64,000 bases of DNA from a bacterium (lineage in GTDB: Bacteria; Patescibacteriota; Patescibacteriia; UBA10025). The notes beneath the pieces were generated by a model. The model was given only the letters and a program-made list of their open reading frames with translations. It made no database searches and was not told the DNA's origin. A program made the translations under genes and the position numbers. Of this stretch, positions 47,401 through 62,938 are shown piece by piece; position 1 is the first letter of the stretch; every line of letters starts with the position of its first letter. The stretch spans positions 307,720 through 371,719 of the forward strand of contig JAKAGM010000002.1 of the NCBI GenBank assembly GCA_021815445.1. Reading direction: 5' to 3'.

Positions 47401-50400
47401 GATTCGATGCGACCAGCGGCGACATCAACATGCCTGCCCGCACGTACGGCGGCGCCGTAGAGATTTATAACAATCATGCAACCACTGCCCGCGTCGTCAC
47501 CATGCTCGCAACCGCCACGCAGACTCTTTCCGGCGATCTGACGGTCATCGCGGCCAACGGCGGTGACATCACTCTTGCCGGAGCTACATATAATCCTACC
47601 GTCAGCATTACAGGCAGTGTTGCATTTACCAAGAGCAGTACCGGAACGCCTATTATTACCACGGGCACTGGTACGTGGACAGTGGGCACAACGCTTGATT
47701 TGACCAACGGTACGTTTACCGCTGCGGCAACCAATACCGTGCTCATGGGCGGCACCGGCAATCTGATCGGAGCCGGCCAAACATTAATTAACCTCACGAT
47801 TGACGGAAACGGCAACACCGTTACCATAACTACTTCGGATATATCCGTCAGCGGGACGCTCACTATCGGCGGAGCGGCAGACGGTAATAACGATACGCTG
47901 TCGATAGGCTCGGGCAGGCTTGTCACCTCCACGTCCGCAGGCACTGTTACGCTTATTGGCAGCGGCACTGACACCATTTCCGGTACGGGGACTCTTGTCG
48001 TAAAAAACAATAATTTAGGCACGGCTGGGACACTCTCTGCTCCCGTCAGATTCGATGCGACAGCGGCAGATCTGACTATGCCCGCACGGACGTATGGGGG
48101 TGATGTGACAATTTACACATTTAAAGTTGTTGTCGATCGTACGGTTACTATGTCAGCAGGGACATATATCATCTCAGGAAACTTGGACATGAATCCTAAT
48201 AATCCTCAGGGAGGTGTGCGGGCATTAACGCTGGATGCCGCAACAAATGATCCCGCAGTAAATGTCACCGGAAACGTTACAAATTCAGAAACAGGGGTTC
48301 TGGGGTACTCGATTATATTAGCTGGAGCAGGTACATGGACGATTACGGGGTATGCAAATTTTCAAAGTCAATGGGGAACAGGAACTGATTTTTTAACCGA
48401 AACAAACAGCACGCTTGTGATGAACGGGACCTCAAAAACGCTGTACCCGGGCAACAACTTGACTCTGTATAATTTTACTAGCGGGGGCACAATCGCTGCC
48501 TCAGGCATGACTGTAAGTAATACTCTGTTGATATCTTCTGGTACATTAACTATGGATATGACTCTCTTGACCGTGGGGAACAACTTTACTAATAATGGCG
48601 CCTATACGGCTAGCTCAGGCACTGTAAATATGACCGGTACCAGCGGCTCCATAGGCGGATCGGCCTCCACGACATTTTATAACCTTTTGATTAATGGGAC
48701 GAATATCACAACTACGGTGAATACGAGCGCAACGGTAAGCGCTACGCTTACCGTCGGCGCCGCCGGCGACGGTAACAACGACGAGCTCTCTATCGCGAGC
48801 GGCAAGACGCTAACGTCCGCGACTACGGGCACCGTGACGCTCATCGGAAGCGGAACGGACTCAATCACGGGCTTAGGCACGTTAGTCGTGAGAAATTCGA
48901 ATTTAGAAGCCACCAATGGCACTATTTCCGCCAACGTCCAATTCAACGCATCGAGCGGGAGTATTAACATGCCTGCGCGGTCATACGGCGGAAATGTGGA
49001 AATATACAGCTCCGGAATATTGCCGCGCACGGTTACTATTGCATCATCCGGGACAGTCAACATCACCGGAAATCTTACCGTTACTGACGCCGGAACCGGT
49101 GTGTCATTGTCCGGGATGAACAATCCCACTGTGAATATCACCGGCAGCATAAATCCGTGTAATCCAGCCACCGACGCATTTATTACGACCGGAACCGGCG
49201 TATGGACGGTCTCTGCCGGCGCGGACTTTACTCTGTGCTCGCTTACTGCGACAAGCGGCAATACCCTCGTGATGAATGGCGCCGGCACGCTGAGAACCTC
49301 TGTAAATACCCTGCAAAATCTGACGCTCTCCGGTACAATAACCCTCGCCAATGAGGTAGAGACCATCGCAGGCAATCTCGACATGACCGGCGGAACGATT
49401 ACTCCCGGCACATCCACCATAGTAATGACCGGGACTAAAGATCTGATTGGTGGAAGCCAGACTCTTAATAATCTCACCATTAACGGAGTCAACACTACAG
49501 TCACAGCAAAGACTTCGAATCTCAGCGTCTCCGGCACCCTGACGATTGGCGGCGCAGCTGACGGCGATAACGACACATTCACGATCAACAGCGGTATCGC
49601 GGTAACCTCGGGAACTGCAGGTACCGTAACGCTCGTCGGCAGTGGCACCGACTCAATCACCGGTGCGGGAACACTCACTGTTCAAAATTCCAACCTTGGC
49701 ACAGGCGGGGTATTGTCCCCGATAGTACGGTTCGATGCCACAAACGGGGATATCGCAACGATGCCTGCGCGCACATACGGCGGGTTAGTGGAAATTTACA
49801 ACGGCCACGCCAGCACGGCGCGCACAGTGACCATGAGCGCTCTAGCCACCCAGACTCTCTCGGGAAACTTAAGCGTCATTGCAAATAGCGGAGGCAACAT
49901 CACGCTTATCGGCGCTCTAAACAATCCGACAGTCAACATCACCGGCGGCGTTTCGTTCGCCAAAAATAGCACGGGCACTATCACCGTCACTTCGGGCACG
50001 GGCACATGGAGCGTCGGCGGAGCAGTGAACTTTACCAACGGCACCTACACGGCGGCAACTGGTAATGTATTGGCGATGAGCGGCTCTGTCAATCTGATCG
50101 GGAACGGCCAAAGTCTCTATGACCTGAACGTGAACGGGACGACCAATACTGTCACGGCGACGACATCGGACGTCAGCATCGCTGGAACGCTCACGGTGGG
50201 ATCGGGCAACATATTGTCGATTGCATCCGGCCGCACGGTAACATATTCCGGGAGCGGGAATGTCGCCGGTACAGGTACTATCAGCGGCGCCGGAACCATT
50301 ACCTTTACTGATACATCCGGCGGTCCGGGGACGGCACTTACTACCCTGAGCGCTGTCTCGCGCTATGACGCGACAAACGGCAATATCGCCTCCACGACAT

Positions 50401-52559
50401 TGGATGCGAGGACGTACGGAGCAAGAGTTGAGATCTACAGCAATAGCACGACGGCGCGCACAGCTACCTTCGCGACTGGCACATATACGCTCTCCGGCGC
50501 ATCGTCACATCTCTACGTCATTGCCGACGGAGCATCTCCGGGTGATGTCACGCTTATCGGCGCCACGAATAATCCCACGGTAACTATAGGCGGAGATCTT
50601 GATTTCACCGGTGTGGGTACGGCAAGTGAAGCGATCACTTCGGGCACGGGGATATGGACGGCGTCAGGCAATGTGAATTTCACTGACGGCACGTACACGG
50701 CCACGGCGGGCAATACCCTCGTGATGAACGGCACATCAAAGACGCTTACCAGCGCATCACAGACGCTCTATAATGTCACGCTCTCAGGTTCCATCACCCT
50801 CGCAAATGCTACGCACACCATAGCGGGCAACCTTGACATGACCGGCGGCACAATTACCGCGGGAACGTCCACAGTGACGATGACCGGCACGTCGAATACC
50901 CTGAAGGGCGGCGGGAACACGCTGGCAAGTCTCACTATTGACCCTCCATCTGCGGGCACGATTACGCTCTCGACGTCAACGCTTGGCGCGGGAAATGTAT
51001 CGGTAGGCACGAATGGCATACTTGCCGGAACGGTTGATGTTACAGTGACGGGCAATGTTACCGGCGGCGGCGCTATCACTCTCACCGGCGGCACCTTCAA
51101 ACAGCTGGTGAATGCCACAAAGACATTTGGCACCGATGTCGCGTCTGCCAACGACTGGACATTCTATAATCTTTCTTTTGAGGCTGCGAGTACGACAAAG
51201 ACTATTACCTTTAACGGCACGGGAACAGGAAAAATTATCGCTACCAACGATTTAGCGACGGTCTTTAACACGGGATCTGTCGTTGTCGACGACGCAACGA
51301 ATGACCGTATCCTCCAGGTGAATGGGAACGTCAGCATTGTATCAAATACCGAGTTAAAAGCTCCCCCGGCAGCAGCTTTCTCTGTGGCCGGCAATTGGAC
51401 AAACGCGGGTACTTTTACCCCCGGGACCGGAACGGTCACATTCAATGCAACCACCGGAACAAAAACAATTGATACAAGTGCGGCCGCGGCGGGGAATTTC
51501 GGAAATGTTGTGCTGAACGATGGGGTAGGAAACGCGACGTTCCAAATTGCCAATGGGCCGATTACCGTGAATAACAATCTCACGATTACCCATGGGACGC
51601 TTGATACCGGCGCCGCGGGAAACTATGGGATCACTATCGGAGGTAATTGGACCAACAACGGAGTTTTTACGGCAAATAGCGGTCTCGTCACAGCAAATGG
51701 TACCAGCCAGCAGACATTTTCCGGGACGATGACGGGCAGTTCAAAGTTCAACAATCTGACCATTACCAATGTTTCCGGGACTGATCCCGATACCTCACCC
51801 TCGGTGATATTCGGTTCGAGTGCGCAGACCGGGGGCACGTTCACGGCAGCCACGGCCAACACGAAGCTCAGGTTCCTCGCAGGCGGCACCTTCACTTTCC
51901 AGAATATCAGCTTCAACGGCCAGGCAACGGGCACAAGAGTGTCGCTCCGCTCCTCCACATACGGGAGCGTGTGGAATATCAATGTCGCCGGCACGCGGAG
52001 CGTGTCGAATACCAATGTTGAAGATTCCGACGCCTGCGGGCAGGCGCCCGACATCGACGCATCAGATGGGACGAACGTCGATAAAGGCAACAACCATTGC
52101 TGGGATATCAACAGGATATCAGTGTCGCTCTCGGCCAATACAATCAACTTAGGCACCCTGAGCACGAGCACGGTGTCGCAGGGCTCCATGATTTCTACTG
52201 TGACGACAAATGCGCCCGACGGGTATGTCAGCGTTATTTACGATACCCAGGACTTCTCGACGGTAGGAGGGGGGACTATTGCGGATGCCGGCGGTTCTAT
52301 TACTAACGGCACCGCGGGGTACGGAGTATCGAGCTCCATGGCGAGCCAAACGGTTGCCCAGACGACGGGAGCATGTTCATCAGGCGCAGGGACCTTTAAT
52401 GCAACGAGCCTCACCGCGACTCCGCAGACATTCGCGTCGAGTGCCAGCGCTGTTACAGGCCAAGCGACGACGCTCTGTTTCCTGGCGACCCCGAGCGGCA
52501 CCACCGAAGCCGGCGGATACTCTGATACGGCGACTCTGGTGACCACAGGGAGGTTCTAG
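41457..52559 (+). CDS. Giant (3700 aa) membrane-anchored surface protein: N-terminal excisionase/MerR-type HTH, one TM, a Thr/Gly/Asn-rich beta-helix-like repeat region, and a conserved C-terminal domain ending LVTTGRF
   Basis: A continuous ORF whose track start is a TTG codon. The HTH_17-like segment is LSLEQVSEILGVHQNTLRNWDNIGKLKSVRIGKRHDRKY. A basic stretch then precedes the TM helix LLGFWLIGNVRSVIIYGLLGLVVFFF. At least six ~270-aa repeats carry the motif ARTYGG(N/A/D)VEIY. Confidence 0.7.
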   Translation: MRFISLGQFKEKIKRNKRFDFRSLPKLLSLEQVSEILGVHQNTLRNWDNIGKLKSVRIGKRHDRKYERDRIEKLFLDMRASQAGAKRDAQKNGKKHRRGAERRNEGPLLGFWLIGNVRSVIIYGLLGLVVFFFSVQNMSLGKILFARAENDALVTMRLQSADCSGWLNPEKARFIDALAKTPLDEFLETNSAVYSNQFAFRSAGPPALNEVPGQPVQPENTAANTSAAPVNDAAAPPANTAPAPVPSADPAPASSDQTAQVNPQLICQGYTFDQPVPDGSRLEKATLVVSFAADTFANNEDVVDFSYSFNGKDWKKLSSFALLQDMSNATNDGYLSYPIEVSSFDDIKNLSVRVDYNAFPATQGSRAFFDGAALDVLIRKPPPPKLANELTQSTTIVKADVAPSEDPTLDVTVEKKSTLDFLGVGPTTRDVQSVTITDPGGNTKTVNLDIQDKQVGKNTVAQYVIPKEDLSRPGLYKVSMQVEQDGYIQEVSKEFSWGVIAVNVRSSVIEPDTYTEVGMSVLDDFGHAQCAAFIEVTVRHPGNFVEKFSTTDKTVVKNPTCKDQSVTNEPDYSAFFTTTTVGKYTVDVTATTEKGTHTISDSFEVRSNPQFTIERTEFPTRIFPFVDYPVKFTVTSQQDFTGVFMEKVPVGFQIYDITQRGAELGGSNDPQYKVITWPVALTAGKPYTLGYTFNPPDQVPFLYKLGPANIGNFTEARQWQIASDAACSSAGSGAWTTTATWSGCRVGGPIAGDTVQINSGHMITISNSTAVAAASVTIITNNSATVNGLTFGNSGSSLAITGAITIPAATASGGSLVAVDAGSITTTSGTSSVSISGAAALTSIFRISTGSVTLTGGVTFGGTQSNAQLTFTGAGSLTIGAGMGTGGTFTKSTSTVTFNGTGAQNITGYNYNNLVVNNAGLTLTTVQDGANTFTVGGTTTITAGTLTMGNFAHTFTGATSVTGTLNTSGGTTGNRTFTGAVTVNSSGTWDLSGQNPATIFANGITVSTGATSFNNGTGTVAFNTNNQALAGSVGMTFGGTATIASGVTLTNNNTGTVNFSAATNCLTGASATLSIFTTGTNSTTQCASALLGAGGSSTGLLNPSGTGSTVEYNGGSQTVKAHNSTNNYVNIKLSGSGTKTLTTTDVTYTGNFDITCSSACSTALVVANTAIQGTLTVGANATFTAGAFALTVTGTTNVQNTGVLSITSATGTKAFNGDVTIDNGGRWSVAISVNFTLPGNLTNNGTFTPSTGTYTLSGAGKAISGTFASPFTTVTLTGGGAQNNAGTFTTATLNVNAAFANTGTITVTSALAGTNTLTNSTNGNLNINVAAASYTLTGLAASASGNTVSWGFAGAQTVTPSISYYNLTLAGSGAKTLTNVTTVSNNLTMAGTATATIVTATMAIGGDLVVGGGTTITIGATTTIGGGDITTSGTSATVGTSGTPTVTISGTGSLGGGTSPGLTFYDLTISGTQTINDPYAMTINHTLTVNGTLNGTGSPATLGSIVGTGTITMASPSAWLVYPTASINFGTTSGSTAWTFYSMTVSAVLASADVTLTTQAGTGDITFNGTLQLSSFGDSFYTNLNAGGRNWIMSATNNAKPFELDVGGAGVLIASTSTFQFTGNNASGNVTLQNATYNNLTLGGASAETFDTEASLTVSGTLNVAANGTLAIGSTHTVTHSGATLTLAGIISGAGRLAYQSATAFPTTGTISSIVRFDATNNDQTMSARTYGGNVEIYNVSSSFTRAVTMTATATQVISGSLSINAAGTAGITLDASVNNPTVTVGGSISSTAGGGGLQVLYAGTGSWTVGANFDMTNIQLTVGTGNTIIMSGTGTFTSGGYNMQNLTLSGTITLANAAHTVYGNLDMTGGTITAGTSTMYMRGTANLVGGNQSLYNLTANGNANTLTVTSNVTVTNVLTIGSVGDNNNDTMSINGGISVTSGTSGTVTLSGSGTDTISGAGTLVMQNSNLNTLGVLSSKVRFDATSGDINMPARTYGGAVEIYNNHATTARVVTMLATATQTLSGDLTVIAANGGDITLAGATYNPTVSITGSVAFTKSSTGTPIITTGTGTWTVGTTLDLTNGTFTAAATNTVLMGGTGNLIGAGQTLINLTIDGNGNTVTITTSDISVSGTLTIGGAADGNNDTLSIGSGRLVTSTSAGTVTLIGSGTDTISGTGTLVVKNNNLGTAGTLSAPVRFDATAADLTMPARTYGGDVTIYTFKVVVDRTVTMSAGTYIISGNLDMNPNNPQGGVRALTLDAATNDPAVNVTGNVTNSETGVLGYSIILAGAGTWTITGYANFQSQWGTGTDFLTETNSTLVMNGTSKTLYPGNNLTLYNFTSGGTIAASGMTVSNTLLISSGTLTMDMTLLTVGNNFTNNGAYTASSGTVNMTGTSGSIGGSASTTFYNLLINGTNITTTVNTSATVSATLTVGAAGDGNNDELSIASGKTLTSATTGTVTLIGSGTDSITGLGTLVVRNSNLEATNGTISANVQFNASSGSINMPARSYGGNVEIYSSGILPRTVTIASSGTVNITGNLTVTDAGTGVSLSGMNNPTVNITGSINPCNPATDAFITTGTGVWTVSAGADFTLCSLTATSGNTLVMNGAGTLRTSVNTLQNLTLSGTITLANEVETIAGNLDMTGGTITPGTSTIVMTGTKDLIGGSQTLNNLTINGVNTTVTAKTSNLSVSGTLTIGGAADGDNDTFTINSGIAVTSGTAGTVTLVGSGTDSITGAGTLTVQNSNLGTGGVLSPIVRFDATNGDIATMPARTYGGLVEIYNGHASTARTVTMSALATQTLSGNLSVIANSGGNITLIGALNNPTVNITGGVSFAKNSTGTITVTSGTGTWSVGGAVNFTNGTYTAATGNVLAMSGSVNLIGNGQSLYDLNVNGTTNTVTATTSDVSIAGTLTVGSGNILSIASGRTVTYSGSGNVAGTGTISGAGTITFTDTSGGPGTALTTLSAVSRYDATNGNIASTTLDARTYGARVEIYSNSTTARTATFATGTYTLSGASSHLYVIADGASPGDVTLIGATNNPTVTIGGDLDFTGVGTASEAITSGTGIWTASGNVNFTDGTYTATAGNTLVMNGTSKTLTSASQTLYNVTLSGSITLANATHTIAGNLDMTGGTITAGTSTVTMTGTSNTLKGGGNTLASLTIDPPSAGTITLSTSTLGAGNVSVGTNGILAGTVDVTVTGNVTGGGAITLTGGTFKQLVNATKTFGTDVASANDWTFYNLSFEAASTTKTITFNGTGTGKIIATNDLATVFNTGSVVVDDATNDRILQVNGNVSIVSNTELKAPPAAAFSVAGNWTNAGTFTPGTGTVTFNATTGTKTIDTSAAAAGNFGNVVLNDGVGNATFQIANGPITVNNNLTITHGTLDTGAAGNYGITIGGNWTNNGVFTANSGLVTANGTSQQTFSGTMTGSSKFNNLTITNVSGTDPDTSPSVIFGSSAQTGGTFTAATANTKLRFLAGGTFTFQNISFNGQATGTRVSLRSSTYGSVWNINVAGTRSVSNTNVEDSDACGQAPDIDASDGTNVDKGNNHCWDINRISVSLSANTINLGTLSTSTVSQGSMISTVTTNAPDGYVSVIYDTQDFSTVGGGTIADAGGSITNGTAGYGVSSSMASQTVAQTTGACSSGAGTFNATSLTATPQTFASSASAVTGQATTLCFLATPSGTTEAGGYSDTATLVTTGRF
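46600..50500 (+). repeat. Tandem ~640-890-nt coding repeats inside the giant gene
   Basis: The ARTYGGxVEIY-containing units recur at about 46631, 47444, 48083, 48975, 49762 and 50407. Confidence 0.6.
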
Positions 52560-52841
52560 AATCTTGAAGCAAAAACAGGTTTTCTGCAAAATCTAGGCAA
52601 CAAGAGCCTTCTCCGCAGAGGCGGATCCGCTTCCGGTGGAAAAGGTCTTTGTTATTGCCAGGGAATCCTGCCCGCCCCGCTTTGCGGAGCGAGGCGGGGG
52701 AATCAAGTCCATGGTTGATAGACACTCAAGAGCAAAGTATTTGACAAGAAACGATAAGTGTGCTATGCTGTAGCCAAGTGAAATGACAGTTTGAGTTTTT
52801 TCTGAAAACAAATTCTTAAAATCACCCAAAAATAAGATTGT

Positions 52842-53933
52842 ATGAGTCGAGTCTGCTCATATCCTCAATCAAAGTCCGCACATAAATACGTGAACCTGTT
52901 TTTGGTCATCCTTTACGTGGCAGTTTTTGCTTTTCTCGTGCCATTGCAGCCCGCCTCTGCCGCCACTCTCTCTACCTCCCGTGATTATCTGAACCGTGAA
53001 ATAGCCGACCTTGCCAGCGGTCTCCAGCACGAAGTCTTTCTCACCACCGTCGGCGCAGTCAGCGGCGGAGCCGGTATCAACAAAGTCATCCTCGTCTTCC
53101 CTGATGCAGACGACGGCAAATGGTGCCGCACCGCAGGCACTGACCTTGTCGCGACAGGCATTGCCAATCCTTCCGGCGGCGCCACGGAAACCGCCACAAT
53201 CCTTCCCGGCACCCTGACAGCCGCCTGTACCCAGGGAGCGGGGGCTTCAAGCTATGACACAATTACCGTCTCGGGCGTTAACAATCTTTCGGCGACTACC
53301 AAGTACGGCGTCCGCATCGCCCAGGCAGGATCTCCGGTAGGCCTGCTTGGCACCGCAACAGCCGCAGCCAACAATATCCAGGTGACGGTCAAGACGAACA
53401 ACGGCACCTCGGACATTGATACCGGAACCGTCGCCCTTTCACTCATCACCAACGACCAGGTGTCAGTCACGGCAACCGTGACTCCGACCCTGACCGTCGT
53501 CTTGAGCGCCAATACCGTCGCTCTCGGCACGCTTGCCACAGGAACGGTGACCCAGGGCTCTATCACCAGCACCGTGACCACCAATGCTAGCGGGGGCTAT
53601 GTCTCGCAGGTGAAGTACAACAATACGCTGACGTCGTTGGCGTCTGACACCATTGCCGACGCCGGCGGCACCATCACCAACGGCACCGCGGGATTCGGGG
53701 CTTCAACTTCGGCAACCAGCCAAGGCATTGCCACCATCACCACAGCCTGTTCGTCAGGTGCCGGAACCTTTAATGCATCATCCCTGACCACGGCCTTCCA
53801 GACCTTTGCCTCTGCAGCGGCGGCCGTCAGCAGTGATGCCACCACCCTTTGCTTCCTTGCCACGATCAGCGGCACCACTCCCGCCGGGTCTTACTCGAGC
53901 ACGAGCACGCTGGTGACGACAGGGAGGTTCTAA
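52842..53933 (+). CDS. Secreted Thr/Ala/Gly-rich protein sharing the giant protein's C-terminal domain (paralog A)
   Basis: Signal peptide cleaved near ASA-ATLS. The C-terminal ~150 aa aligns with the giant protein's C-terminus (conserved C...C pair, LATxSGTT, ends STLVTTGRF). Confidence 0.6.
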   Translation: MSRVCSYPQSKSAHKYVNLFLVILYVAVFAFLVPLQPASAATLSTSRDYLNREIADLASGLQHEVFLTTVGAVSGGAGINKVILVFPDADDGKWCRTAGTDLVATGIANPSGGATETATILPGTLTAACTQGAGASSYDTITVSGVNNLSATTKYGVRIAQAGSPVGLLGTATAAANNIQVTVKTNNGTSDIDTGTVALSLITNDQVSVTATVTPTLTVVLSANTVALGTLATGTVTQGSITSTVTTNASGGYVSQVKYNNTLTSLASDTIADAGGTITNGTAGFGASTSATSQGIATITTACSSGAGTFNASSLTTAFQTFASAAAAVSSDATTLCFLATISGTTPAGSYSSTSTLVTTGRF

Positions 53934-53936
53934 GAC
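52946..53936 (+). repeat. Tandem duplication, unit 1 (~991 bp, apparently 100% identical to unit 2)
   Basis: The sequence from GCAGCCCGCCTCTGCC through TTCTAAGACT recurs at an offset of 1189 bp. Both strands translate identically in the two units. Confidence 0.8.
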
Positions 53937-54027
53937 TTAATAAGAATAATTCTCGCTTAAAGCTGGTTGACCCTTCTCTGTTTGCTTGATACCATCATAT
54001 GCATAGGGGAAACACAAAAGTTACATT

Positions 54028-55122
54028 ATGATACACAAAAGAAAATTACTGCTCATGAGTAAAATGTTTCGGCGCGTTAGTTGTGCGTTCTCAACCATTG
54101 CAGTTCTTGTAGCGGTCATTTTAAATTTAACTATGCAGCCCGCCTCTGCCGCCACTCTCTCTACCTCCCGTGATTATCTGAACCGTGAAATAGCCGACCT
54201 TGCCAGCGGTCTCCAGCACGAAGTCTTTCTCACCACCGTCGGCGCAGTCAGCGGCGGAGCCGGTATCAACAAAGTCATCCTCGTCTTCCCTGATGCAGAC
54301 GACGGCAAATGGTGCCGCACCGCAGGCACTGACCTTGTCGCGACAGGCATTGCCAATCCTTCCGGCGGCGCCACGGAAACCGCCACAATCCTTCCCGGCA
54401 CCCTGACAGCCGCCTGTACCCAGGGAGCGGGGGCTTCAAGCTATGACACAATTACCGTCTCGGGCGTTAACAATCTTTCGGCGACTACCAAGTACGGCGT
54501 CCGCATCGCCCAGGCAGGATCTCCGGTAGGCCTGCTTGGCACCGCAACAGCCGCAGCCAACAATATCCAGGTGACGGTCAAGACGAACAACGGCACCTCG
54601 GACATTGATACCGGAACCGTCGCCCTTTCACTCATCACCAACGACCAGGTGTCAGTCACGGCAACCGTGACTCCGACCCTGACCGTCGTCTTGAGCGCCA
54701 ATACCGTCGCTCTCGGCACGCTTGCCACAGGAACGGTGACCCAGGGCTCTATCACCAGCACCGTGACCACCAATGCTAGCGGGGGCTATGTCTCGCAGGT
54801 GAAGTACAACAATACGCTGACGTCGTTGGCGTCTGACACCATTGCCGACGCCGGCGGCACCATCACCAACGGCACCGCGGGATTCGGGGCTTCAACTTCG
54901 GCAACCAGCCAAGGCATTGCCACCATCACCACAGCCTGTTCGTCAGGTGCCGGAACCTTTAATGCATCATCCCTGACCACGGCCTTCCAGACCTTTGCCT
55001 CTGCAGCGGCGGCCGTCAGCAGTGATGCCACCACCCTTTGCTTCCTTGCCACGATCAGCGGCACCACTCCCGCCGGGTCTTACTCGAGCACGAGCACGCT
55101 GGTGACGACAGGGAGGTTCTAA
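54028..55122 (+). CDS. Secreted Thr/Ala/Gly-rich protein (paralog B), identical to A after the signal peptide
   Basis: A different N-terminal signal peptide (MIHKRK.../MSKMFRR...), then mature sequence identical to paralog A. Confidence 0.6.
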   Translation: MIHKRKLLLMSKMFRRVSCAFSTIAVLVAVILNLTMQPASAATLSTSRDYLNREIADLASGLQHEVFLTTVGAVSGGAGINKVILVFPDADDGKWCRTAGTDLVATGIANPSGGATETATILPGTLTAACTQGAGASSYDTITVSGVNNLSATTKYGVRIAQAGSPVGLLGTATAAANNIQVTVKTNNGTSDIDTGTVALSLITNDQVSVTATVTPTLTVVLSANTVALGTLATGTVTQGSITSTVTTNASGGYVSQVKYNNTLTSLASDTIADAGGTITNGTAGFGASTSATSQGIATITTACSSGAGTFNASSLTTAFQTFASAAAAVSSDATTLCFLATISGTTPAGSYSSTSTLVTTGRF

Positions 55123-55125
55123 GAC
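54135..55125 (+). repeat. Tandem duplication, unit 2
   Basis: See unit 1. Confidence 0.8.
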
Positions 55126-55159
55126 TATATCTTTGGATGTGATCATAAGGAGGAACTCT

Positions 55160-56263
55160 ATGATATTCAAAAATAAATTAGCCGCGATCCTGTTTTTCAG
55201 TATTATCGCCGGACTAGTCGTTATTCCGCACGCAAGCCATGCCTTGACGCTGATTCCTCCGTCTCTTGAGTTCCAAGCCACTCCGGGTCAGACGTACCAG
55301 ACGACTGTCAAAGTATTTAACGAAGAGGAAAAAGATATCCAGGTATATACCGAGGTCGCCAATTTCGGTCCCCAGGGCGAGTCAGGCGTTCCCGCGTTTG
55401 ATTTTACCCAGCAAAGCACTGATTTAAGCGCATGGATTACGGTAGATAAGGGACCGTTTGCGATCAAGCCCGGGGAACGGATAGAGATTCCCATCAAAGT
55501 GAATCCGCCAAAAAACGCGGAGCCCGGCGGCCATTATTCCGCGATTTTCTTTTCACAAAATGCTCCCACTGATTCCGCGGGGACTCAGGTCGGGATTGCG
55601 TCAAAAATCGGCGTCCTTCTCCTCGTCAAAATCTCAGGTGACGTCAAAGAAGAGGGAAGTATAAAGGAATTCTCAGTGAGTGCGACAAAGATGCTGACTC
55701 GGTTGCCCGTCGATTTTAACGTACGTTTTGAAAATACTGGAAATGTCCATCTTCGTCCTACCGGGGCCATTACCATCAGCAATATGTTCGGACACGTCGT
55801 AGACACCGTGCAGATCAACCAGCAAAAAGGCGCCACGCTGCCCAAGTCGATCAGAAAGTATGACGCCCTCTGGGAACGGGCGCAGGTGAAGGCGACCACA
55901 GGAAACGGCTGGAGTAAGTTTTGGTCCGAATACAGAAATGAGCGCCTGAACTTCGGAATTGGGAAATACAAAGCTGCTCTCAGCATGGTCGCAGGGACTA
56001 ACGACGGTATCCGTGACACAAAGACCTTAAGTTTCTGGATTGTACCGTGGCACGTCCTGTTGATTTACGGGGTTGCGCTTGTTATTATCTTGCTCGCCCT
56101 GTGGCACCTGATTAAGCAATACAACAAGTGGTTGATCAACAAAGCCCTCAAATCACGGGCAAGCGTCCCGGGTGATAGCGATAAACAAAAAGAGAAAGCT
56201 GTCGTCAAGAATGAAAGCGGCAAGAGTGCCGGAGATAAGAATCAGCGGGATAAGGGCAAGTAA
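55160..56263 (+). CDS. Cell-surface protein with N-terminal signal, beta-rich ectodomain, C-terminal TM anchor and charged tail (DUF916-like architecture)
   Basis: AAGGAGG ribosome-binding site 6 nt before the ATG. The signal peptide IIAGLVVIPHASHA, the C-terminal TM WIVPWHVLLIYGVALVIILLALW and a Lys/Asp-rich tail are all present. Confidence 0.55.
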   Translation: MIFKNKLAAILFFSIIAGLVVIPHASHALTLIPPSLEFQATPGQTYQTTVKVFNEEEKDIQVYTEVANFGPQGESGVPAFDFTQQSTDLSAWITVDKGPFAIKPGERIEIPIKVNPPKNAEPGGHYSAIFFSQNAPTDSAGTQVGIASKIGVLLLVKISGDVKEEGSIKEFSVSATKMLTRLPVDFNVRFENTGNVHLRPTGAITISNMFGHVVDTVQINQQKGATLPKSIRKYDALWERAQVKATTGNGWSKFWSEYRNERLNFGIGKYKAALSMVAGTNDGIRDTKTLSFWIVPWHVLLIYGVALVIILLALWHLIKQYNKWLINKALKSRASVPGDSDKQKEKAVVKNESGKSAGDKNQRDKGK

Positions 56264-56292
56264 ATTATTTTATACCGTTCAATGACGCCGAT

Positions 56293-57156
56293 ATGACGAC
56301 ACTGCGCGCATTGTGTCGCTGTTTGCGATACATTATTGCCGGAGTCCTCGTTGCGGCGATGGTTATACCCTCGCAAGTTTTTGCGCTTGATATTAATGTC
56401 ACCGCGGAAGTGCCCGTACCGGTACCGCCGGAGATTATCGATGCAACCGTAATATTCAGCGGCTTTTCATATCCGAATTCCGCAATGCGGATACTCAAGG
56501 ACGGTACGCAAGTTGTAACAGGCGCTGCTGACGCCCAAGGCCGGTACACTATCACGGTCACGACAGCGCCGGGCGCATATACGTTCGGCGTCATTGGCAA
56601 AGATATTCGCGGGAGAGACGGAGCAGTCACCAACTTCTCCCTCGCTCTCACCAGTGGGGCGACAGTGACTATTAGCGATGTCTTTTTGGCGCCGACTATC
56701 GCGACGAACGCCACAAGCGTTACCGCGGGCGAGACTGTCGCTTTTTCAGGGTTTACCGTGCCGCAAAGCACCGTTACCCTTACGGTAAATTCGTTTCAGG
56801 AAAAGATATACACGGCTACCTCGAATAGCGCCGGAGAGTGGCTGATCAACGTTGCCACGAGTACGTTTGAAGCCGGTACGCACACCGCATCAGCGAAATC
56901 GACAACGGGGACATTGGCATCGGAAATTTCCGGCATCGTCAGCTTTATCGTAAAAGGCGCCCAGCCCCCGAACAAATGCGACGGTAAGGTTTCCGGTGAC
57001 ATTAATTGTGACGGAAAGGTAGACCTTATTGATTTCAGCATCATGCTGTATTATTGGAATGTGACCCATCCGGCGAATGCCCGGGTAGACATCAATGCTG
57101 ATGGCGTCGTGGATGAGGCAGATTTCAGTATTTTACTCTTTTATTGGACAGGGTAG
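56293..57156 (+). CDS. Secreted Ig-like-domain protein with C-terminal type-I dockerin
   Basis: Two 22-residue Ca-binding dockerin repeats, DINCDGKVDLIDFSIMLYYW and DINADGVVDEADFSILLFYW. Confidence 0.65.
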   Translation: MTTLRALCRCLRYIIAGVLVAAMVIPSQVFALDINVTAEVPVPVPPEIIDATVIFSGFSYPNSAMRILKDGTQVVTGAADAQGRYTITVTTAPGAYTFGVIGKDIRGRDGAVTNFSLALTSGATVTISDVFLAPTIATNATSVTAGETVAFSGFTVPQSTVTLTVNSFQEKIYTATSNSAGEWLINVATSTFEAGTHTASAKSTTGTLASEISGIVSFIVKGAQPPNKCDGKVSGDINCDGKVDLIDFSIMLYYWNVTHPANARVDINADGVVDEADFSILLFYWTG

Positions 57157-57163
57157 TCATCGT

Positions 57164-58306
57164 ATGCGAAAAGTTCAATCAGTGAAATATTTGATTGCCG
57201 GTGCGCTCGTTGTGGCGGGTTTATTCGGTATTCGCAGTGCTGCGCATGCCGCATTACTCTTTACCTACCCGCAGGAATACCAGGCGGTGGCGAATGACAC
57301 GCTTGTCGTCGATATTAGGCTGGACAGCAAGCTGGATCCCGTGAATGTGGTGAAAGGGACGTTGCTGTATCCCACTGACCTTCTCGCCGTGGAGGACGTT
57401 TCATACCGCGGATCATTCCTGACGCTGTGGATCCAGCAGCCCACCGTTGACGCAAAGGCGGGAACCGTCACATTCCTGGGGGGCGTTCCTCATGGCAGCT
57501 ACGTAGCCGGTGGACGCGTTATGACCGTTACTTTCCGTGCGTTGTCCCAGGGTACTGCGAAGCTTGTTTTTGACCAGGGGTTGTCGAGCGTTCTCCTGAA
57601 TGACGGCAAGGGAACCAAGGCCCCGCTCCAGACACAGCAGGGGACCTATTATATCGTGGATGCTTTAACAAGCATCGTCCGAATAGACTCATCGACCCAT
57701 CCGGACGAAAATACGTGGTATCCCTTTAACCTGCTTAAAGTTCATTGGGATCCAAAACCCGGCGCTTCCTATAGTTATGTGCTGAGCAAGGATCCTTTTG
57801 AAACCCCTGATGATCTCGCAGATTCGGCCATCGGTGATGTACAGTTTACCGATCTCGATGACGGGGCATATTACTTTACCCTCAAGGAGCTTATCCCGGG
57901 TCATGCCTGGAGCGTCGTAGGCAGGCGGAGAGCGCTTATCGACAGGATAGGCCCGACAGGTTTGGAGTATAAGATCGGCAGCGATCCCACCGCGTATGGA
58001 GGGAAAACATTTTTAGCATTCACAGCGTCAGATGCGGCGTCGGGCATCGATCACTTTGATGTAGTCGAAGGAAATACGGTGACATCACCGGCTACAAGTC
58101 CGTACATTCTCGCAGATCAGACCCGCCACAAGGGGATTATCCTCCGGGTATATGATAAGGCGGGTAATATGACCGAGGCCACGGTTTCCCAATCTTCTCC
58201 GATTACCTCCTCAACAGCGACATTCATAGTCGTTGGCGCCGGTATTGTTCTAGGTGCTATTGTAGTAATATGGATTCGCACGCGAAAGCGCAAAAAAGAA
58301 CAATAA
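57164..58306 (+). CDS. Surface protein with N-terminal cohesin-like domain, a conserved STHPDxNxWY domain and a C-terminal TM anchor
   Basis: Signal peptide, a ~140-aa beta-sandwich-like region that is paralogous to the N-terminus of the next gene, then the C-terminal TM FIVVGAGIVLGAIVVIWI followed by RTRKRKK. Confidence 0.55.
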   Translation: MRKVQSVKYLIAGALVVAGLFGIRSAAHAALLFTYPQEYQAVANDTLVVDIRLDSKLDPVNVVKGTLLYPTDLLAVEDVSYRGSFLTLWIQQPTVDAKAGTVTFLGGVPHGSYVAGGRVMTVTFRALSQGTAKLVFDQGLSSVLLNDGKGTKAPLQTQQGTYYIVDALTSIVRIDSSTHPDENTWYPFNLLKVHWDPKPGASYSYVLSKDPFETPDDLADSAIGDVQFTDLDDGAYYFTLKELIPGHAWSVVGRRRALIDRIGPTGLEYKIGSDPTAYGGKTFLAFTASDAASGIDHFDVVEGNTVTSPATSPYILADQTRHKGIILRVYDKAGNMTEATVSQSSPITSSTATFIVVGAGIVLGAIVVIWIRTRKRKKEQ

Positions 58307-60699
58307 GCCGGGGACACTTTGCACGAAAGATTTTTATCTTTCTTGCCGCCATCCTTGCCTCGGGCGGTATGTTTTTTGTTTTGCGTCCTGTGCCGGCTTC
58401 TGCCGCCACGTTCAGCCTGGTCCCGTCGAGCGGGACTATTACTATCGGGCAACAGACGGATATCACGCTGACTCTAGGCAGTCCGGGGCAGGCGATTAAT
58501 GCGGCCGAAGCGGTAATAACATTTCCCAGCACCTACCTTGCGGTAGATAGCGTCACCAAAGGCGCGCTCTTCAACCATTGGCCGGTAGGTCCTGTTTTCT
58601 CGAACGCACCGGGTACTGTCACGTTCGCAGGCGGCCTGCCATCCCCGGGATTCTCCGGTGACTCAGGAACGGTGTTCGCCGTCGCTTTTCGCGGAGTGTC
58701 CCCGGGTGCCGGCGTACAGGTATGCATCACAGCTGCGCGGATACTCGCAAACGACGGGAACGGCACGGACGTACTTCAGCCTCCTGATTGCGCGGTTTAT
58801 GACGTCGTGGCTGGGAAGGTTCCCCCTGCTCCACAGGTAACCTCCTCGACTCACCCCGACCAGAATGCATGGTATCCGCTTTCCAGTCCCGCAATATCGT
58901 GGACTATAGGCGAGGGCGTACTTGATTTTAGCTACGTGCTTGACCGCACATCGGGCACCCAGCCTGACGAACAGGGAGAAGGAATAGGCACGGCGAAAAC
59001 CTACACCGGTCTTGACGACGGAATATGGTATTTTCACGTACGCGCAAAAAATATATTCGGGTGGGGAGCTACGGGGCATTTTACCCTGAGGATAGATACT
59101 GTCGCTCCGCTTCCTTTTGCCATCAATCTCCTCGATGGGCAAAACACAGAATCGCATACTCCGCGGATCAGCTTTGAAACGACCGACGCCACTTCTGGCG
59201 TCCAGTACTATGAGATCATGCTCAATGGAGGTCCGGCGGTAACCTTGCCCGTCGGATCGACTCTCCCATACACATTTTCACAGCTCCAAAACGGAGAATA
59301 TACGGTTATCGCGACGGCCGTGGATTACTCGGGAAATCGTACAACGGCGTCGACGCTCTTTACCGTAGTTTCTCCGACACTTTTGAACCGCATAGACCAG
59401 ATCATCAATATTACAAAGGAGCAGATTGCGAAAATCCTGCCCGCACCCGTGATATCCACTATCACAAATGTCACAAAGGACATCGCTAAAACGATCGAAA
59501 CCCTGCGCTCGAACACTGAAGTAACGAATGTTTTTAAGGATATCGTCCAGCCGACCACGAGCACCGCAGCCATCATCGCAACTGTCGGCGTCGCGACATC
59601 AACGGCGACAGTCGAATTGACCAACATTTTTTACTTGCTCTTCCGTTTCGGGTATTTCTGGCTGCTGCCTATCTCGTTCGGCAAAAAACGAAAGCCGTGG
59701 GGCGTCGTCTTTGACAGCTCGACAGGCCGGCCTATCAAAGGAGTGATGGTCAGAATCTTTGCGAAAGAATTCAACAAGCTCAAAGAAACCCAGATTACCG
59801 ATGATCAGGGAAGGTTCGGCTTCCTGGTGGATATCGGAGAATACTATGTGACGGTGTCGCGTCCCGGATATTTTTTTCCTTCCCGCCTCATCCTTACCCC
59901 CGTTATCAGCCGTTTCGAAAACATTTACCGCGGGGAAGTTTTTTCTATCAAAGAGCGGATTGAATCCGCTATTTCAATCAATGTTCCCATCGATCCCGAC
60001 GACCAGCATGTTTCGCGCCTCCGCCTCAACTGGCTGCGGGTCATTAATCTCTTGGGTGTTATTCTCGACAAAATGAATGCTCCGCTGTTGATCGGCGGCA
60101 CGCTCTTGAGCTGGGCGACGCTGATCATGCAACCGCGGCTTGGGAACTATCTCGTGCTTGCGCTGTATGGATTCCTCATCTTGGTAAAATTTTACCTCGC
60201 GAAAAGGGTCCAGCGGTCATGGGGAATCGTCAGAGACGCCGTGACGGACAAGCCCGTCGAACTCGCCGTCGTGCGCATCCATAATATTGCATCCGGTGCC
60301 GTGGCTGCCACCAAGATTACCAACGGCGAAGGCAAATTTTCCGCCCTTGTCATGCCCGGTCAGTATTACCTCATGGTAATAAAGGCCGGCTATCAGGCGT
60401 ACCAAAGCAAGACCGTGAACATCGTCAAGCAGCGCGGTTTGATCACCACGGAAGTGCGGTTGAGGCCTATTGAAAAAAAACAACCGCAAATTTCATCTAT
60501 GCCCCACTTAGGCGAACCTCCAGCGGTACAACCGCGCACAACCGATGAGCAAGAAGCCATAGCAGAACATGGCCCCGGTTTCACTGATGCTTCTTCTGGC
60601 GAGAAACAACTGCCGCATTCCATGCCGCCCAAGAGTGACGATCTTCTCTCAGGAGAAGAAGGAGATTCTACCCCAGGCAATCCTCAAAAAAAATTGTAA
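58270..60699 (+). CDS. Cohesin-like + STHPDxNxWY domain protein with a multi-TM region and two carboxypeptidase-regulatory-like (CarbopepD_reg) domains. The start is uncertain: the first 33 codons (58270-58368) overlap the preceding gene, and the hydrophobic signal-like segment precedes Met34.
   Basis: The N-terminal domain is paralogous to the 57164 gene. The CarbopepD_reg-like segments are WGVVFDSSTGRPIKGVMVRI...TDDQGRFGF...GEYYVTVSRPGYF and WGIVRDAVTDKPVELAVVRI...GEGKF...GQYYLMVIKAGYQ. Confidence 0.55.
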   Translation: MDSHAKAQKRTISRGHFARKIFIFLAAILASGGMFFVLRPVPASAATFSLVPSSGTITIGQQTDITLTLGSPGQAINAAEAVITFPSTYLAVDSVTKGALFNHWPVGPVFSNAPGTVTFAGGLPSPGFSGDSGTVFAVAFRGVSPGAGVQVCITAARILANDGNGTDVLQPPDCAVYDVVAGKVPPAPQVTSSTHPDQNAWYPLSSPAISWTIGEGVLDFSYVLDRTSGTQPDEQGEGIGTAKTYTGLDDGIWYFHVRAKNIFGWGATGHFTLRIDTVAPLPFAINLLDGQNTESHTPRISFETTDATSGVQYYEIMLNGGPAVTLPVGSTLPYTFSQLQNGEYTVIATAVDYSGNRTTASTLFTVVSPTLLNRIDQIINITKEQIAKILPAPVISTITNVTKDIAKTIETLRSNTEVTNVFKDIVQPTTSTAAIIATVGVATSTATVELTNIFYLLFRFGYFWLLPISFGKKRKPWGVVFDSSTGRPIKGVMVRIFAKEFNKLKETQITDDQGRFGFLVDIGEYYVTVSRPGYFFPSRLILTPVISRFENIYRGEVFSIKERIESAISINVPIDPDDQHVSRLRLNWLRVINLLGVILDKMNAPLLIGGTLLSWATLIMQPRLGNYLVLALYGFLILVKFYLAKRVQRSWGIVRDAVTDKPVELAVVRIHNIASGAVAATKITNGEGKFSALVMPGQYYLMVIKAGYQAYQSKTVNIVKQRGLITTEVRLRPIEKKQPQISSMPHLGEPPAVQPRTTDEQEAIAEHGPGFTDASSGEKQLPHSMPPKSDDLLSGEEGDSTPGNPQKKL

Positions 60700-60708
60700 A
60701 CTAACACT

Positions 60709-61416
60709 ATGCGTGCTGCGATTGTTATTCCAACATATAACGAAAAAGAGAATATTATCCCGCTCCTGCGGTCTATTCTATCTCAAAAGGTGGCTGCCGC
60801 CTTGGAGATTATAGTGGTCGATGACAACTCCCCCGACGGTACCGGTTTACTCATTGATGAGGAAAGCAAGCTTCATCAAGAAATTTCGTGTATCCATCGC
60901 AAGGGAAAACTCGGCTTGGGGAGCGCATACCGCGAGGGATTCCGCACGGCCTTATCGCGAGGCGCAGATGCAATTGTCGGCATGGACGCGGATTTTTCAC
61001 ACTCCCCAAAATATCTGCCTGCGCTACTTGCCGGCACCGCTCACGCGGACCTTGTCATCGGATCACGGTACATCAAGGGCGGCGGCCAAAAAGGATGCTC
61101 GCTCGGACGGAGGATTCTGAGCAGGGGGGCTAATGCGCTGGCACGGCTCCTCCTCGCGCTTCCGACGCGGGATGCTACTTCAGGATTTCGGTGCTACACG
61201 CGGGCAGTTTTTGACCGCATAGATCTTTCGACAGTCAGATCAGACGGATACTCATTCCTGGTAGAAATGGTGGTCAGATGCCGCCGCGCCGGACTGACGA
61301 TAAGGGAGGTGCCGATTATTTTCGAAAATCGAACCCGCGGGGCTTCCAAAATATCCCGCAGGGAAGTGTGGCACGGGATGATGACGATTCTACACCTTCT
61401 ATTTCGGAGGTTCTGA
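60709..61416 (+). CDS. GT2 polyprenol-phosphate glycosyltransferase (Dpm1-like)
   Basis: IVIPTYNEKENI...IIVVDDNSPDGT...GSRYIKGG. Confidence 0.85.
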   Translation: MRAAIVIPTYNEKENIIPLLRSILSQKVAAALEIIVVDDNSPDGTGLLIDEESKLHQEISCIHRKGKLGLGSAYREGFRTALSRGADAIVGMDADFSHSPKYLPALLAGTAHADLVIGSRYIKGGGQKGCSLGRRILSRGANALARLLLALPTRDATSGFRCYTRAVFDRIDLSTVRSDGYSFLVEMVVRCRRAGLTIREVPIIFENRTRGASKISRREVWHGMMTILHLLFRRF

Positions 61417-62302: not shown

Positions 62303-62938
62303 TTGACTACTTCTAGTGTTCACCAAAATATGATCAAACTTTTTCAGAAATCTCAGAAAAAACCCCATGAAGAGCGATCGACCTCGGCAGGCGGGTTTAT
62401 CTTCGAAATAGGAAAGACTATCGTCATCGCGATTGCCCTGGTATTGGTGATCAGATTTTTCCTTATCCAGCCTTTTTACGTCAAGGGAGCATCCATGGAA
62501 CCTAACTTTCATGACCACGAATATCTCGTGATTGATGAAATCAGCTACCGCCTGCACCAGCCTGAACGCGGCGATGTCATTGTTATCCGGTATCCTCGCG
62601 ACCCGTCGCAATTTTTTATTAAACGCCTGATCGGTCTGCCGGGAGAGACCATAGAAATCCACAGGGATGAAGTGGTCATCACCACTGCAGGGTCCCAAAC
62701 GATAGTACTCAGTGAACCGTACCTTGCGCCGGACACTCCGACAACCGGCGAAATACGCCTGACGCTTGCCAGCGATGAATACTTCGTCCTCGGAGATAAT
62801 CGAACGGCGAGTCTCGACTCCCGGTCATTCGGCGCTGTTAAAAAAAGTTACGTGGTCGGACGGACATGGATTCGCGTGTGGCCCTTTGACCGTTTTCGGA
62901 TTTTTAAGAATATAAACTACCCGACGTCGGCGCCCTAG
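62303..62938 (+). CDS. lepB: Signal peptidase I
   Basis: S26 boxes GASMEPNF and GDNRTASLDSRSFG. Confidence 0.85.
   Translation: MTTSSVHQNMIKLFQKSQKKPHEERSTSAGGFIFEIGKTIVIAIALVLVIRFFLIQPFYVKGASMEPNFHDHEYLVIDEISYRLHQPERGDVIVIRYPRDPSQFFIKRLIGLPGETIEIHRDEVVITTAGSQTIVLSEPYLAPDTPTTGEIRLTLASDEYFVLGDNRTASLDSRSFGAVKKSYVVGRTWIRVWPFDRFRIFKNINYPTSAP

Follow-up and report, generated by a model that had tools for sequence, protein, structure and literature searches.

A dockerin protein with a pilin-like donor strand as the putative membrane joint of a Pam-type pilus in Patescibacteria

Why should a bacterium keep a type-I dockerin in the middle of a row of pilin-like and membrane-protein genes? The question is raised by a 64,000-nucleotide (nt) stretch of Patescibacteria DNA (contig JAKAGM010000002.1 of GenBank assembly GCA_021815445.1, positions 307,720 to 371,719; hereafter the window, in whose own numbering all coordinates are given). 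Seven genes lie there head to tail on the + strand between 41457 and 60699: a giant open reading frame (ORF), two paralogs of 363 and 364 amino acids (aa), and the ORFs starting at 55160, 56293, 57164 and 58270. Our answer, which we put forward as probable, is that 41457-60699 forms one operon for a Pam-type pilus, assembled by donor-strand exchange, of a bacterium of the Candidate Phyla Radiation (CPR, or Patescibacteria), and that 55160-60699 is the assembly and anchoring half of that operon. That the dockerin, the cohesins encoded next to it and the Pam-type operon are all real we hold with high confidence. CPR bacteria account for a large share of bacterial diversity and live attached to host cells, and how they build and hold surface filaments is only starting to be described.

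The genes and modules on which the argument turns are the following.

41457..52559, + strand: giant protein of up to 3700 aa, putative tip adhesin (C-terminal 199 aa match NCBIfam NF058581, CPR_Pam_pilin_C, E=2.1e-7)
52842..53933, + strand: Pam-type pilin copy 1, 363 aa (residues 223-363 match NF058581, E=4.7e-9)
54028..55122, + strand: Pam-type pilin copy 2, 364 aa (mature part identical to copy 1; signal peptide and upstream region differ)
55160..56263, + strand: WxLIP/DUF916-like two-domain protein, 367 aa, with a C-terminal transmembrane (TM) helix and a charged tail; putative donor-strand chaperone (from Pfam, an AlphaFold2 (AF2) model and synteny)
56293..57156, + strand: dockerin protein, 287 aa, putative pilus terminator/adaptor (Pfam Dockerin_1, Big_6 and Big_13; homolog in 41/41 cohesin-bearing loci)
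56386..56421, + strand: predicted donor strand LDINVTAEVPVP, residues 32-43 of the dockerin protein, just after a predicted signal-peptidase site between VFA and LD
56995..57156, + strand: type-I dockerin module, residues 235-287 of the same protein, with two near-symmetric repeats, DINCDGKVDLIDFSIMLYYW and DINADGVVDEADFSILLFYW (Pfam match)
57164..58306, + strand: cohesin membrane anchor 1, 380 aa (from Pfam matches of homologs, an AF2 model and Foldseek)
58270..60699, + strand: cohesin membrane anchor 2, 809 aa (from paralogy to ORF 57164 and Pfam CarboxypepD_reg)

Across 55160-60699 the intergenic gaps measure 29, 7 and -37 nt, and a scan for consensus promoters and terminators found no convincing + strand terminator between cassette genes. 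Promoter- and terminator-like sites were no more numerous than in shuffled controls, the only suggestive ones being promoter-like sites ahead of each pilin copy (52741-52769 and 53967-53995). Exact sequences of the window are also present in the Patescibacteria metagenome-assembled genome (MAG) GCA_027341205.1 and homologs of its proteins are almost all from CPR, in line with the small-genome bacterium that an earlier interpretation of the letters alone (the sequence-only reading) had supposed.

The dockerin can be read directly. Pfam Dockerin_1 (PF00404) matches residues 235-281 of ORF 56293 (E=1.5e-9, 38.4 bits against a gathering score of 22.9), and both calcium-loop repeats are legible, DINCDGKVDLID-F and DINADGVVDEAD-F. 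They conform to the type-I layout of two tandem repeats of ~22 residues, each consisting of a calcium-binding loop (DxNxDGxxxxxD) and a helix, and the sequence is very strongly conserved across 43 loci. Ahead of the dockerin the protein carries a signal peptide (residues 1-31), a donor-strand-like mature N-terminus, a Pro/Glu-rich spacer and two immunoglobulin (Ig)-like domains (Big_6 and Big_13). The helices of the two repeats are near-identical (DFSI[ML]L[FY]YW), which by analogy would permit a dual binding mode or binding to either of two sockets; dual-mode dockerin binding is well established in cellulosomes.

The two genes that follow are candidates for the sockets. Their products are paralogous (28% identity over 343 aa, E=3e-30), in an alignment that spans an N-terminal beta-sandwich, an SSTHPD(E/Q)NxWYP domain and a third, Ig/FnIII-like domain. 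ORF 57164 encodes a signal peptide, a cohesin (residues ~30-165; nt ~57251-57658), a beta-sandwich with the motif STHPDENTWYP, an FnIII/BIg-like domain, a TM helix and a basic tail. In ORF 58270 a signal peptide, a cohesin (residues ~46-185) and two beta-sandwich domains like those of 57164 are followed by a polytopic region with two CarboxypepD_reg stretches (E=3.1e-21), hydrophobic segments between them, and a disordered tail. Immediately ahead of each CarboxypepD_reg domain come a hydrophobic segment and then basic residues (FGKKRKPWG at residues ~470-480, AKRVQRSWG at ~645-655), so that under the positive-inside rule they would lie in the cytoplasm, though beta-sandwiches of this kind are usually extracytoplasmic.

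Are these N-terminal domains cohesins? Pfam Cohesin (PF00963) matches 35/58 aligned homologs of the window cohesins (E<=0.01, best 2.1e-9), several homologs are named 'cohesin domain-containing protein' in their source records, and the family profile, searched against PDB sequences, gives weak cohesin matches (E 0.015-0.34). The AF2 model of the 380-aa protein has a mean predicted local distance difference test score (pLDDT) of 91.3 and a C-terminal TM helix at residues 349-379. Foldseek matches of this model in the PDB are almost all cohesins, with template-modelling (TM) scores of 0.72-0.81 and root-mean-square deviations (rmsd) of 2.2-3.4 A over ~150 columns; they include 6kge_A (TM-score 0.80, rmsd 2.3 A), the non-cellulosomal Archaeoglobus fulgidus cohesin 2xdh (TM-score 0.79) and the cohesin-FnIII module 2w1n (E=4e-10). 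As modelled, then, the N-terminal domain of ORF 57164 folds as a cohesin, a flattened jelly-roll beta-sandwich, and not as a generic Ig or FN3 domain, and by its 28% identity that of ORF 58270 is probably one too. Much of the sequence-only reading survives here: it had proposed a type-I dockerin with two calcium-binding repeats, followed by two membrane-anchored proteins with paralogous cohesin-like starts and a common STHPD(E/Q)NxWY domain, the longer of which adds two CarbopepD_reg-like domains and a multi-TM region. The Pfam search for PF00963 that it suggested succeeds with most of the aligned homologs and fails with the window proteins themselves.

A cohesin and a dockerin side by side call to mind the anchoring scaffoldins of cellulosomes (OlpC/OlpA cohesin-dockerin complexes, PDB 4dh2 and 3ul4). 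The window resembles these in a cell-bound cohesin for a type-I-like dockerin with two calcium repeats, and its cohesin fold is close to theirs (TM-scores in the range 0.72-0.81), but its cohesin proteins are anchored by TM helices rather than by S-layer homology domains or sortase, and the cargo we propose is a filament. A cellulosome proper we reject, as the sequence-only reading had done: no glycoside hydrolase or carbohydrate-binding module is matched, there is one cohesin per protein and no multi-cohesin scaffoldin, and the sole dockerin protein has Ig-like domains and no enzyme domain.

What the dockerin protein might be carrying is suggested by the genes upstream. Pilin copy 1 consists of a signal peptide, an N-terminal domain, a linker or donor strand (NDQVSVTATVTP, residues ~205-216) and an acceptor C-terminal domain (CTD, residues 217-363). 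In the family to which it belongs, 36/40 members match NF058581 (best E 2e-42) and 19/40 match the PamT model, and the most conserved stretch is the linker, DDQVxV[ST]ATVxP. The giant protein has a long Thr/Gly-rich repetitive ectodomain and ends in a Pam-type acceptor CTD (~52116-52556) without a donor strand. Over its final 147 aa it shares 65% identity with the CTD of the pilins (E=9e-50), the match beginning exactly after the pilin linker, and the kinship that had been suspected between the giant protein and its small paralogs is thereby borne out.

Two peculiarities of these genes deserve mention. The pilin gene copies are 100% identical in DNA over ~995 nt, that is, over the whole mature protein and the stop codon, and their signal peptides and upstream regions are unrelated; a recent duplication, gene conversion or an assembly effect could each account for this. 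The N-terminus of the giant ORF (41457-41900) holds, in frame, an excisionase/MerR-like helix-turn-helix (HTH) domain (residues ~21-85), a basic linker, a TM or signal segment and a cleavage-like site between ARA and E, which leaves the true start uncertain. Stand-alone homologs of this HTH domain (E ~1e-31) are encoded in two Saccharibacteria-labelled loci (L053 14426-14683 and L077 9325-9525), in L053 just ahead of an apparent long + strand ORF that runs off the locus. Perhaps a membrane-tethered regulator is here fused to the tip adhesin or translated together with it; or the start could be wrong.

Pam pili were reported only in 2026, from Candidatus Mycosynbacter amalyticus, where cryo-electron microscopy (cryo-EM) shows pilins made of an N-terminal domain, a linker beta-strand and an open CTD that accepts the linker of a neighbour (Troman et al., bioRxiv 10.64898/2026.03.03.709456). 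According to the same preprint, the chaperones predicted from the operon, PamC/D, are PapD-like and tethered to the membrane by a C-terminal TM helix; PamT is an acceptor-only tip subunit, and PamR, terminator and anchor in one, combines an N-terminal strand with two FnIII domains and a TM helix. Dockerin, cohesin and WxL are never mentioned in it (bioRxiv 10.64898/2026.03.03.709456). The window shares with the Pam system its pilin architecture, an acceptor-only tip, a two-domain chaperone-like TM protein encoded next to the pilins, a putative base subunit that starts with a strand, and the restriction to CPR; the filament of the window is a prediction from the genes of an uncultured organism known only from a MAG. 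It departs from that system in three ways: the tip is a 3700-aa giant adhesin instead of the single-domain PamT; the lineage is Parcubacteria-group or Kerfeldbacteria-like instead of Saccharimonadia, with pilins that score below the model cut-off; and the terminator-anchor is apparently split into two polypeptides joined through dockerin and cohesin, with no single PamR-type protein in the window.

To see how general this arrangement is, we collected 78 loci around ORF 55160 homologs from GTDB species genomes, added one related metagenome contig (L002), and scanned the resulting 79 loci with hidden Markov models (HMMs) built for this analysis. A pilin-CTD gene is present in 77/79 loci, and a pilin gene stands directly before the WxLIP-like gene in essentially every one. 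In 41 loci the cassette runs in the order giant CTD protein (not in all), pilin, one or two WxLIP-like proteins, a dockerin protein of ~290 aa, and two or sometimes three cohesin proteins. The dockerin gene occupies the same slot, between chaperone and cohesin genes, in 41/41 cohesin-bearing loci; the only dockerin-only loci are two on truncated contigs. Where labels are informative the loci are from CPR (Kerfeldbacteria, Uhrbacteria, the Parcubacteria group, Saccharibacteria, Minisyncoccales and Moraniibacteriota). Many contigs with CPR-type cassettes (e.g. L007, L012, L013, L014 and L046) are labelled 'uncultured Gammaproteobacteria', Pirellulales or Methylomirabilis, and one homologous protein (P0184) Bathyarchaeia; the contigs are probably mis-binned or mislabelled MAG contigs.

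Synteny places the dockerin protein in the pilus operon, and its own N-terminus suggests what it might do there. Dockerin proteins begin, once mature, with x-Q-V-T-V-T-A-T-V-P-E (LDINVTAEVPVP in the window), and pilin linkers read D-D-Q-V-x-V-[ST]-A-T-V-x-P (NDQVSVTATVTP in the window). Expressed as the regular expression [VI]x[VI][STG][AG]x[VI], the motif occurs in 41/43 dockerin-protein N-termini and in 67/108 pilin linkers, against 11/674 background N-termini, and in none of the 12 large CTD proteins of related loci does it precede the CTD. The Pro/Glu-rich spacer between the motif and the first Ig domain indicates that the strand is not part of the Ig fold. In three genomes (L032, L060 and L056) a whole pilin N-domain (45-54% identity, E 1e-44 to 1e-52) and a linker head the dockerin protein, after which Ig-Ig-dockerin takes the place of the CTD; Pfam confirms Dockerin_1 in L032. 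With the donor motif, these pilin-headed variants and no acceptor domain, the dockerin protein looks like a derivative of a pilin, able to give a strand to a neighbour but not to receive one. It would most likely be a base terminator or adaptor of the pilus, not generic displayed cargo. A divergent second version of the pair may be seen in L058 (11140-16065), where a 755-aa protein combines a pilin N-domain, a donor strand and three fn3 domains with a dockerin-like C-terminus that has no Pfam match, and the gene after it codes for a protein of 879 aa, which matches the cohesin HMM weakly (8.7e-7) and has three CarboxypepD_reg domains.

In loci that have neither cohesin nor dockerin, one of two types of single-chain protein directly follows the chaperone gene. 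The short type has a signal peptide, a donor strand, FnIII and a TM helix (L041, L043, L045, L047, L051, L070 and L078), and is like PamR by published architecture, a likeness of descriptions only. The long type, of ~1100-1200 aa, has a pilin N-domain, a donor strand, FnIII repeats and a polytopic CarboxypepD_reg module, and its C-terminal half is 25-29% identical to the C-terminal half of ORF 58270 (E 1e-25 to 1e-36). The two cohesin proteins of the window mirror these two anchor types, and where other lineages have a single chain the window has two, the break falling exactly at dockerin and cohesin. As fusion evidence of the Rosetta-stone type, these single-chain donor-strand anchors of cohesin-less lineages suggest that the dockerin protein is most likely a pilus terminator docked on membrane cohesins. 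One long anchor (L057 10981-14535) bears, at residues ~500-600 between FnIII and the membrane module, three acidic double-disulfide repeats (NF033662, E=6.8e-28), which mimic dockerin calcium loops in a simple regular expression. A stricter dockerin expression picked out L057 and L081, both of which we rejected as dockerins since they have such acidic repeats instead.

The remaining gene of the cassette, ORF 55160, had been taken in the sequence-only reading for a DUF916-type anchor with a C-terminal TM helix and a charged tail. The relationship and the helix stand. The match of ORF 55160 itself to Pfam WxLIP_PGBD (=DUF916, PF06030) is sub-threshold (E=4.5e-4, 20.7 against 27.3 bits), 24/58 of its homologs match that family (E<=0.01), and the family profile matches the solved EfmWxLIP1 (E=4.5e-4). 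The AF2 model (pLDDT 89.9) consists of two beta-sandwich (Ig-like) domains and a TM helix at 297-334, and its best PDB match is the WxLIP chain 9i25_C (E=5.9e-12), with 9i1y also found among top matches ranging from 5.9e-12 to 6.3e-10. After WxLIP come several unrelated multi-domain proteins, RbmA of V. cholerae, and then the chaperones CsuC, CfaA and DraB of chaperone-usher systems. It is this fold, together with the position directly after the pilin gene in essentially every locus, that argues for a chaperone role: judged from the model, ORF 55160 is more likely a membrane-anchored, PamC/PamD-like donor-strand chaperone than an anchor. No NCBIfam model for PamC/D or PamR matched the ORF 55160 family or the single-chain anchors.

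Taken together, domain identities, paralogy, conserved synteny, a common donor motif and fusion variants suggest the following scheme, which as a whole we judge to be somewhat more likely than not. All components would be exported by Sec. The WxLIP-like protein 55160, tethered to the membrane by its C-terminal helix, would act as a chaperone holding the open CTD of incoming subunits. The giant protein, having an acceptor domain and no donor strand, would take the distal tip as an adhesin, and the 363-aa pilins would polymerise behind it, the strand between the N-terminal domain and CTD of each entering the CTD of the previous subunit. The dockerin protein 56293, with a donor strand at its mature N-terminus and no acceptor, would then cap the last pilin and stop growth. 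Its calcium-dependent C-terminal dockerin would plug into the cohesin of 57164 (single TM helix) or of 58270 (polytopic), providing a strong non-covalent joint between filament and cell. In other lineages the same job would fall to one polypeptide comprising a donor strand, FnIII and either a TM helix or a polytopic CarboxypepD_reg module. It is a prediction that dockerin binds cohesin, that the strand enters the groove of the pilin, that ORF 55160 works as a chaperone and that this organism forms a filament.

There are other ways to read the locus. One, which the sequence-only reading favoured when it described a 19-kb modular, non-cellulosomal surface assembly, is a stand-alone display module in which membrane cohesins present an Ig-Ig-dockerin cargo or adhesin, next to a DUF916-type protein that is an anchor in its own right and to a giant protein and paralogs that simply happen to be encoded nearby. 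Dockerin and cohesins are indeed real and adjacent, non-cellulosomal cohesin-dockerin pairs are known (e.g. PDB 2xdh), and one Saccharibacterium cannot grow epibiotically without a dockerin-domain protein, for which no link to a pilus is stated (PMC10633639). If display were all there is to it, however, it would remain unexplained why the dockerin gene always lies between the chaperone-like and cohesin genes of a pilin operon, why its product starts with the linker motif of pilins and in some variants with a full pilin N-domain, and why single-chain donor-strand anchors replace the pair in cohesin-less lineages. We therefore regard this explanation as unlikely: the parts and their non-cellulosomal nature stand, and the free-standing module gives way to the distal part of a Pam-type pilus operon, as the NF058581 matches indicate. 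Or perhaps it is the proposed pairing that is at fault, the dockerin binding a host-cell or a glycan ligand or a distant cohesin while the cohesins capture other dockerins. Only 64 kb of genome is in view, each dockerin gene comes with two or three cohesins, and dockerin-like modules can, as a matter of general knowledge, bind other things. We nonetheless consider this the least probable of the alternatives, given the strict co-occurrence of dockerin and cohesin in fixed order in 41/41 loci, the window's own content of one dockerin and two cohesins, and the fused single-chain equivalents, which argue for a physical link between a donor-strand part and a membrane part.

A third scenario grants the complex and denies the filament: as in a WxL cluster, the WxLIP-like protein would hold the small and giant CTD proteins singly, no pilus would form, and cohesin and dockerin would be an extra tether. 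The resemblance is considerable. ORF 55160 has its best sequence and structure matches in E. faecium WxLIP, and it shares two Ig-like domains and a C-terminal TM helix with the WxL/WxLIP (DUF916-DUF3324) clusters of Enterococcus, Lactobacillus and Listeria, to whose protein it is a detectable homolog. The logic of the locus, with a small and a large protein that have a common CTD and a TM-anchored two-domain partner, is that of WxL clusters (PMC10599100), and the cluster around ORF 55160 mirrors them in just these respects. Yet WxL clusters encode such proteins beside WxL-domain proteins, and no WxL match was found by Pfam among the window proteins or 40 pilin-family members; Pfam returned no other meaningful family for the 40 pilins either. 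The pilin-family profile likewise found no PDB sequence at E<=10, the WxL chain of 9i25 included; sequence comparison therefore lends no support to homology of the Pam CTD with the WxL domain. WxL clusters, for their part, have no known filament, cohesin or dockerin, and WxL proteins are described as bound to peptidoglycan. What the pilin family does match is the Pam pilin model, which NCBI named for pilins seen as filaments in cryo-EM, and its conserved linker strand, missing in the giant protein, fits polar polymerisation. A complex without a filament thus strikes us as improbable, somewhat more so than the display module. A weaker possibility, raised because the chaperone candidate is a WxLIP homolog, is that CPR Pam pili and the WxL clusters of Firmicutes are two branches of one ancient monoderm system of strand complementation. 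None of the three scenarios explains at once why there is a donor motif, why some variants have a pilin N-domain and why single-chain equivalents exist.

A pilus anchored through cohesin and dockerin has difficulties of its own. The two or three cohesin proteins per dockerin protein are unexplained, and the cohesins could have further partners encoded elsewhere, our view being limited to 64 kb of the genome. PF00963 gives no match at E<=1 for ORF 57164 or ORF 58270, and NCBIfam likewise none directly, so that the cohesin assignment rests on homologs and fold. The window pilins reach 36.5 bits with NF058581 (CPR_Pam_pilin_C, E=4.7e-9) where the curated cut-off is 55; despite this score the sequence relationship of the family to Pam pilins appears solid. 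The donor motif is short, and dockerin proteins and pilins show no locus-specific covariation (permutation p=0.17), a result that is uninformative. Finally, the assembly model of the Pam preprint on which we draw is largely based on AlphaFold (bioRxiv 10.64898/2026.03.03.709456).

Keeping these points in mind, we see about equal grounds for and against a more specific claim: that a cohesin-dockerin pair has been recruited as a load-bearing plug and socket that fixes a donor-strand pilus to the CPR cytoplasmic membrane, the dockerin protein being a pilin-derived terminator whose acceptor was replaced by Ig-Ig-dockerin, and the cohesin proteins interchangeable sockets that match the two kinds of single-chain anchor. 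How would such a device compare with other pili? Chaperone-usher pili (Pap, Fim, Csu and CFA-I, with PapH as a terminator) have the same donor-strand logic, a similar chaperone fold (CsuC, CfaA and DraB), and the polarity from tip adhesin to base terminator. They differ in having an outer-membrane usher and a soluble periplasmic chaperone; the chaperone candidate of the window is membrane-tethered, and the putative terminator has a dockerin and no acceptor domain; no usher-like gene is found among the cassette genes of the window, whose proteins were scanned against Pfam and NCBIfam, or of the 79 loci. Sortase-assembled pili of Gram-positive bacteria, too, have a dedicated last subunit that fixes the fibre to a monoderm envelope, but by covalent isopeptide and sortase chemistry, and the window has neither a sortase nor an LPXTG motif. 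We rejected anchoring of that kind, the one hint of it being a weak, sub-threshold Gram_pos_anchor match that is due to a TM helix and a basic tail.

Non-cellulosomal cohesin-dockerin pairs, Pam pili and WxLIP are each known already; new would be their combination as a pilus anchor, for which the evidence is comparative. No paper in the literature we searched ties cohesin and dockerin to pili or donor-strand systems, the closest published case being the dockerin-domain protein reported, without a mechanism, to be essential in a Saccharibacterium (PMC10633639). If true, the scheme would amount to a principle of pilus anchoring that is neither covalent (sortase) nor usher-based and of which we found no description in that literature. 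It would give the cohesin-dockerin pair a natural role outside the cellulosome as a mechanical joint, fitting its known mechanical strength, and it would turn split and single-chain anchors in sister lineages into a natural experiment in modular evolution. It would also connect a filament system with the WxL/WxLIP clusters of Gram-positive pathogens, which are poorly understood, and this may guide work on WxLIP function.

Two conserved neighbours lie downstream of the cassette, and their link to the pilus system is uncertain.

60709..61416, + strand: glycosyltransferase family 2 (GT2) protein of the polyprenyl-phosphate type
62303..62938, + strand: signal peptidase I (TIGR02227, E=2e-42)

In 9 other loci the last cohesin gene is likewise followed by a GT2 gene, and a signal peptidase I gene lies just downstream of the cassette in 15 others; examples of such neighbours are at L009 15428-17177 and L019 11950-14025. 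The two may provide a dedicated glycosylation step and a leader peptidase that exposes the donor strand of the dockerin protein. On the other side, upstream of the giant gene and divergent from it, the - strand of the window encodes an LCP-family (LytR-CpsA-Psr) glycopolymer transferase (39786-41276; TIGR00350, E=5e-37), a gene that was not found near the cassette in the other loci.

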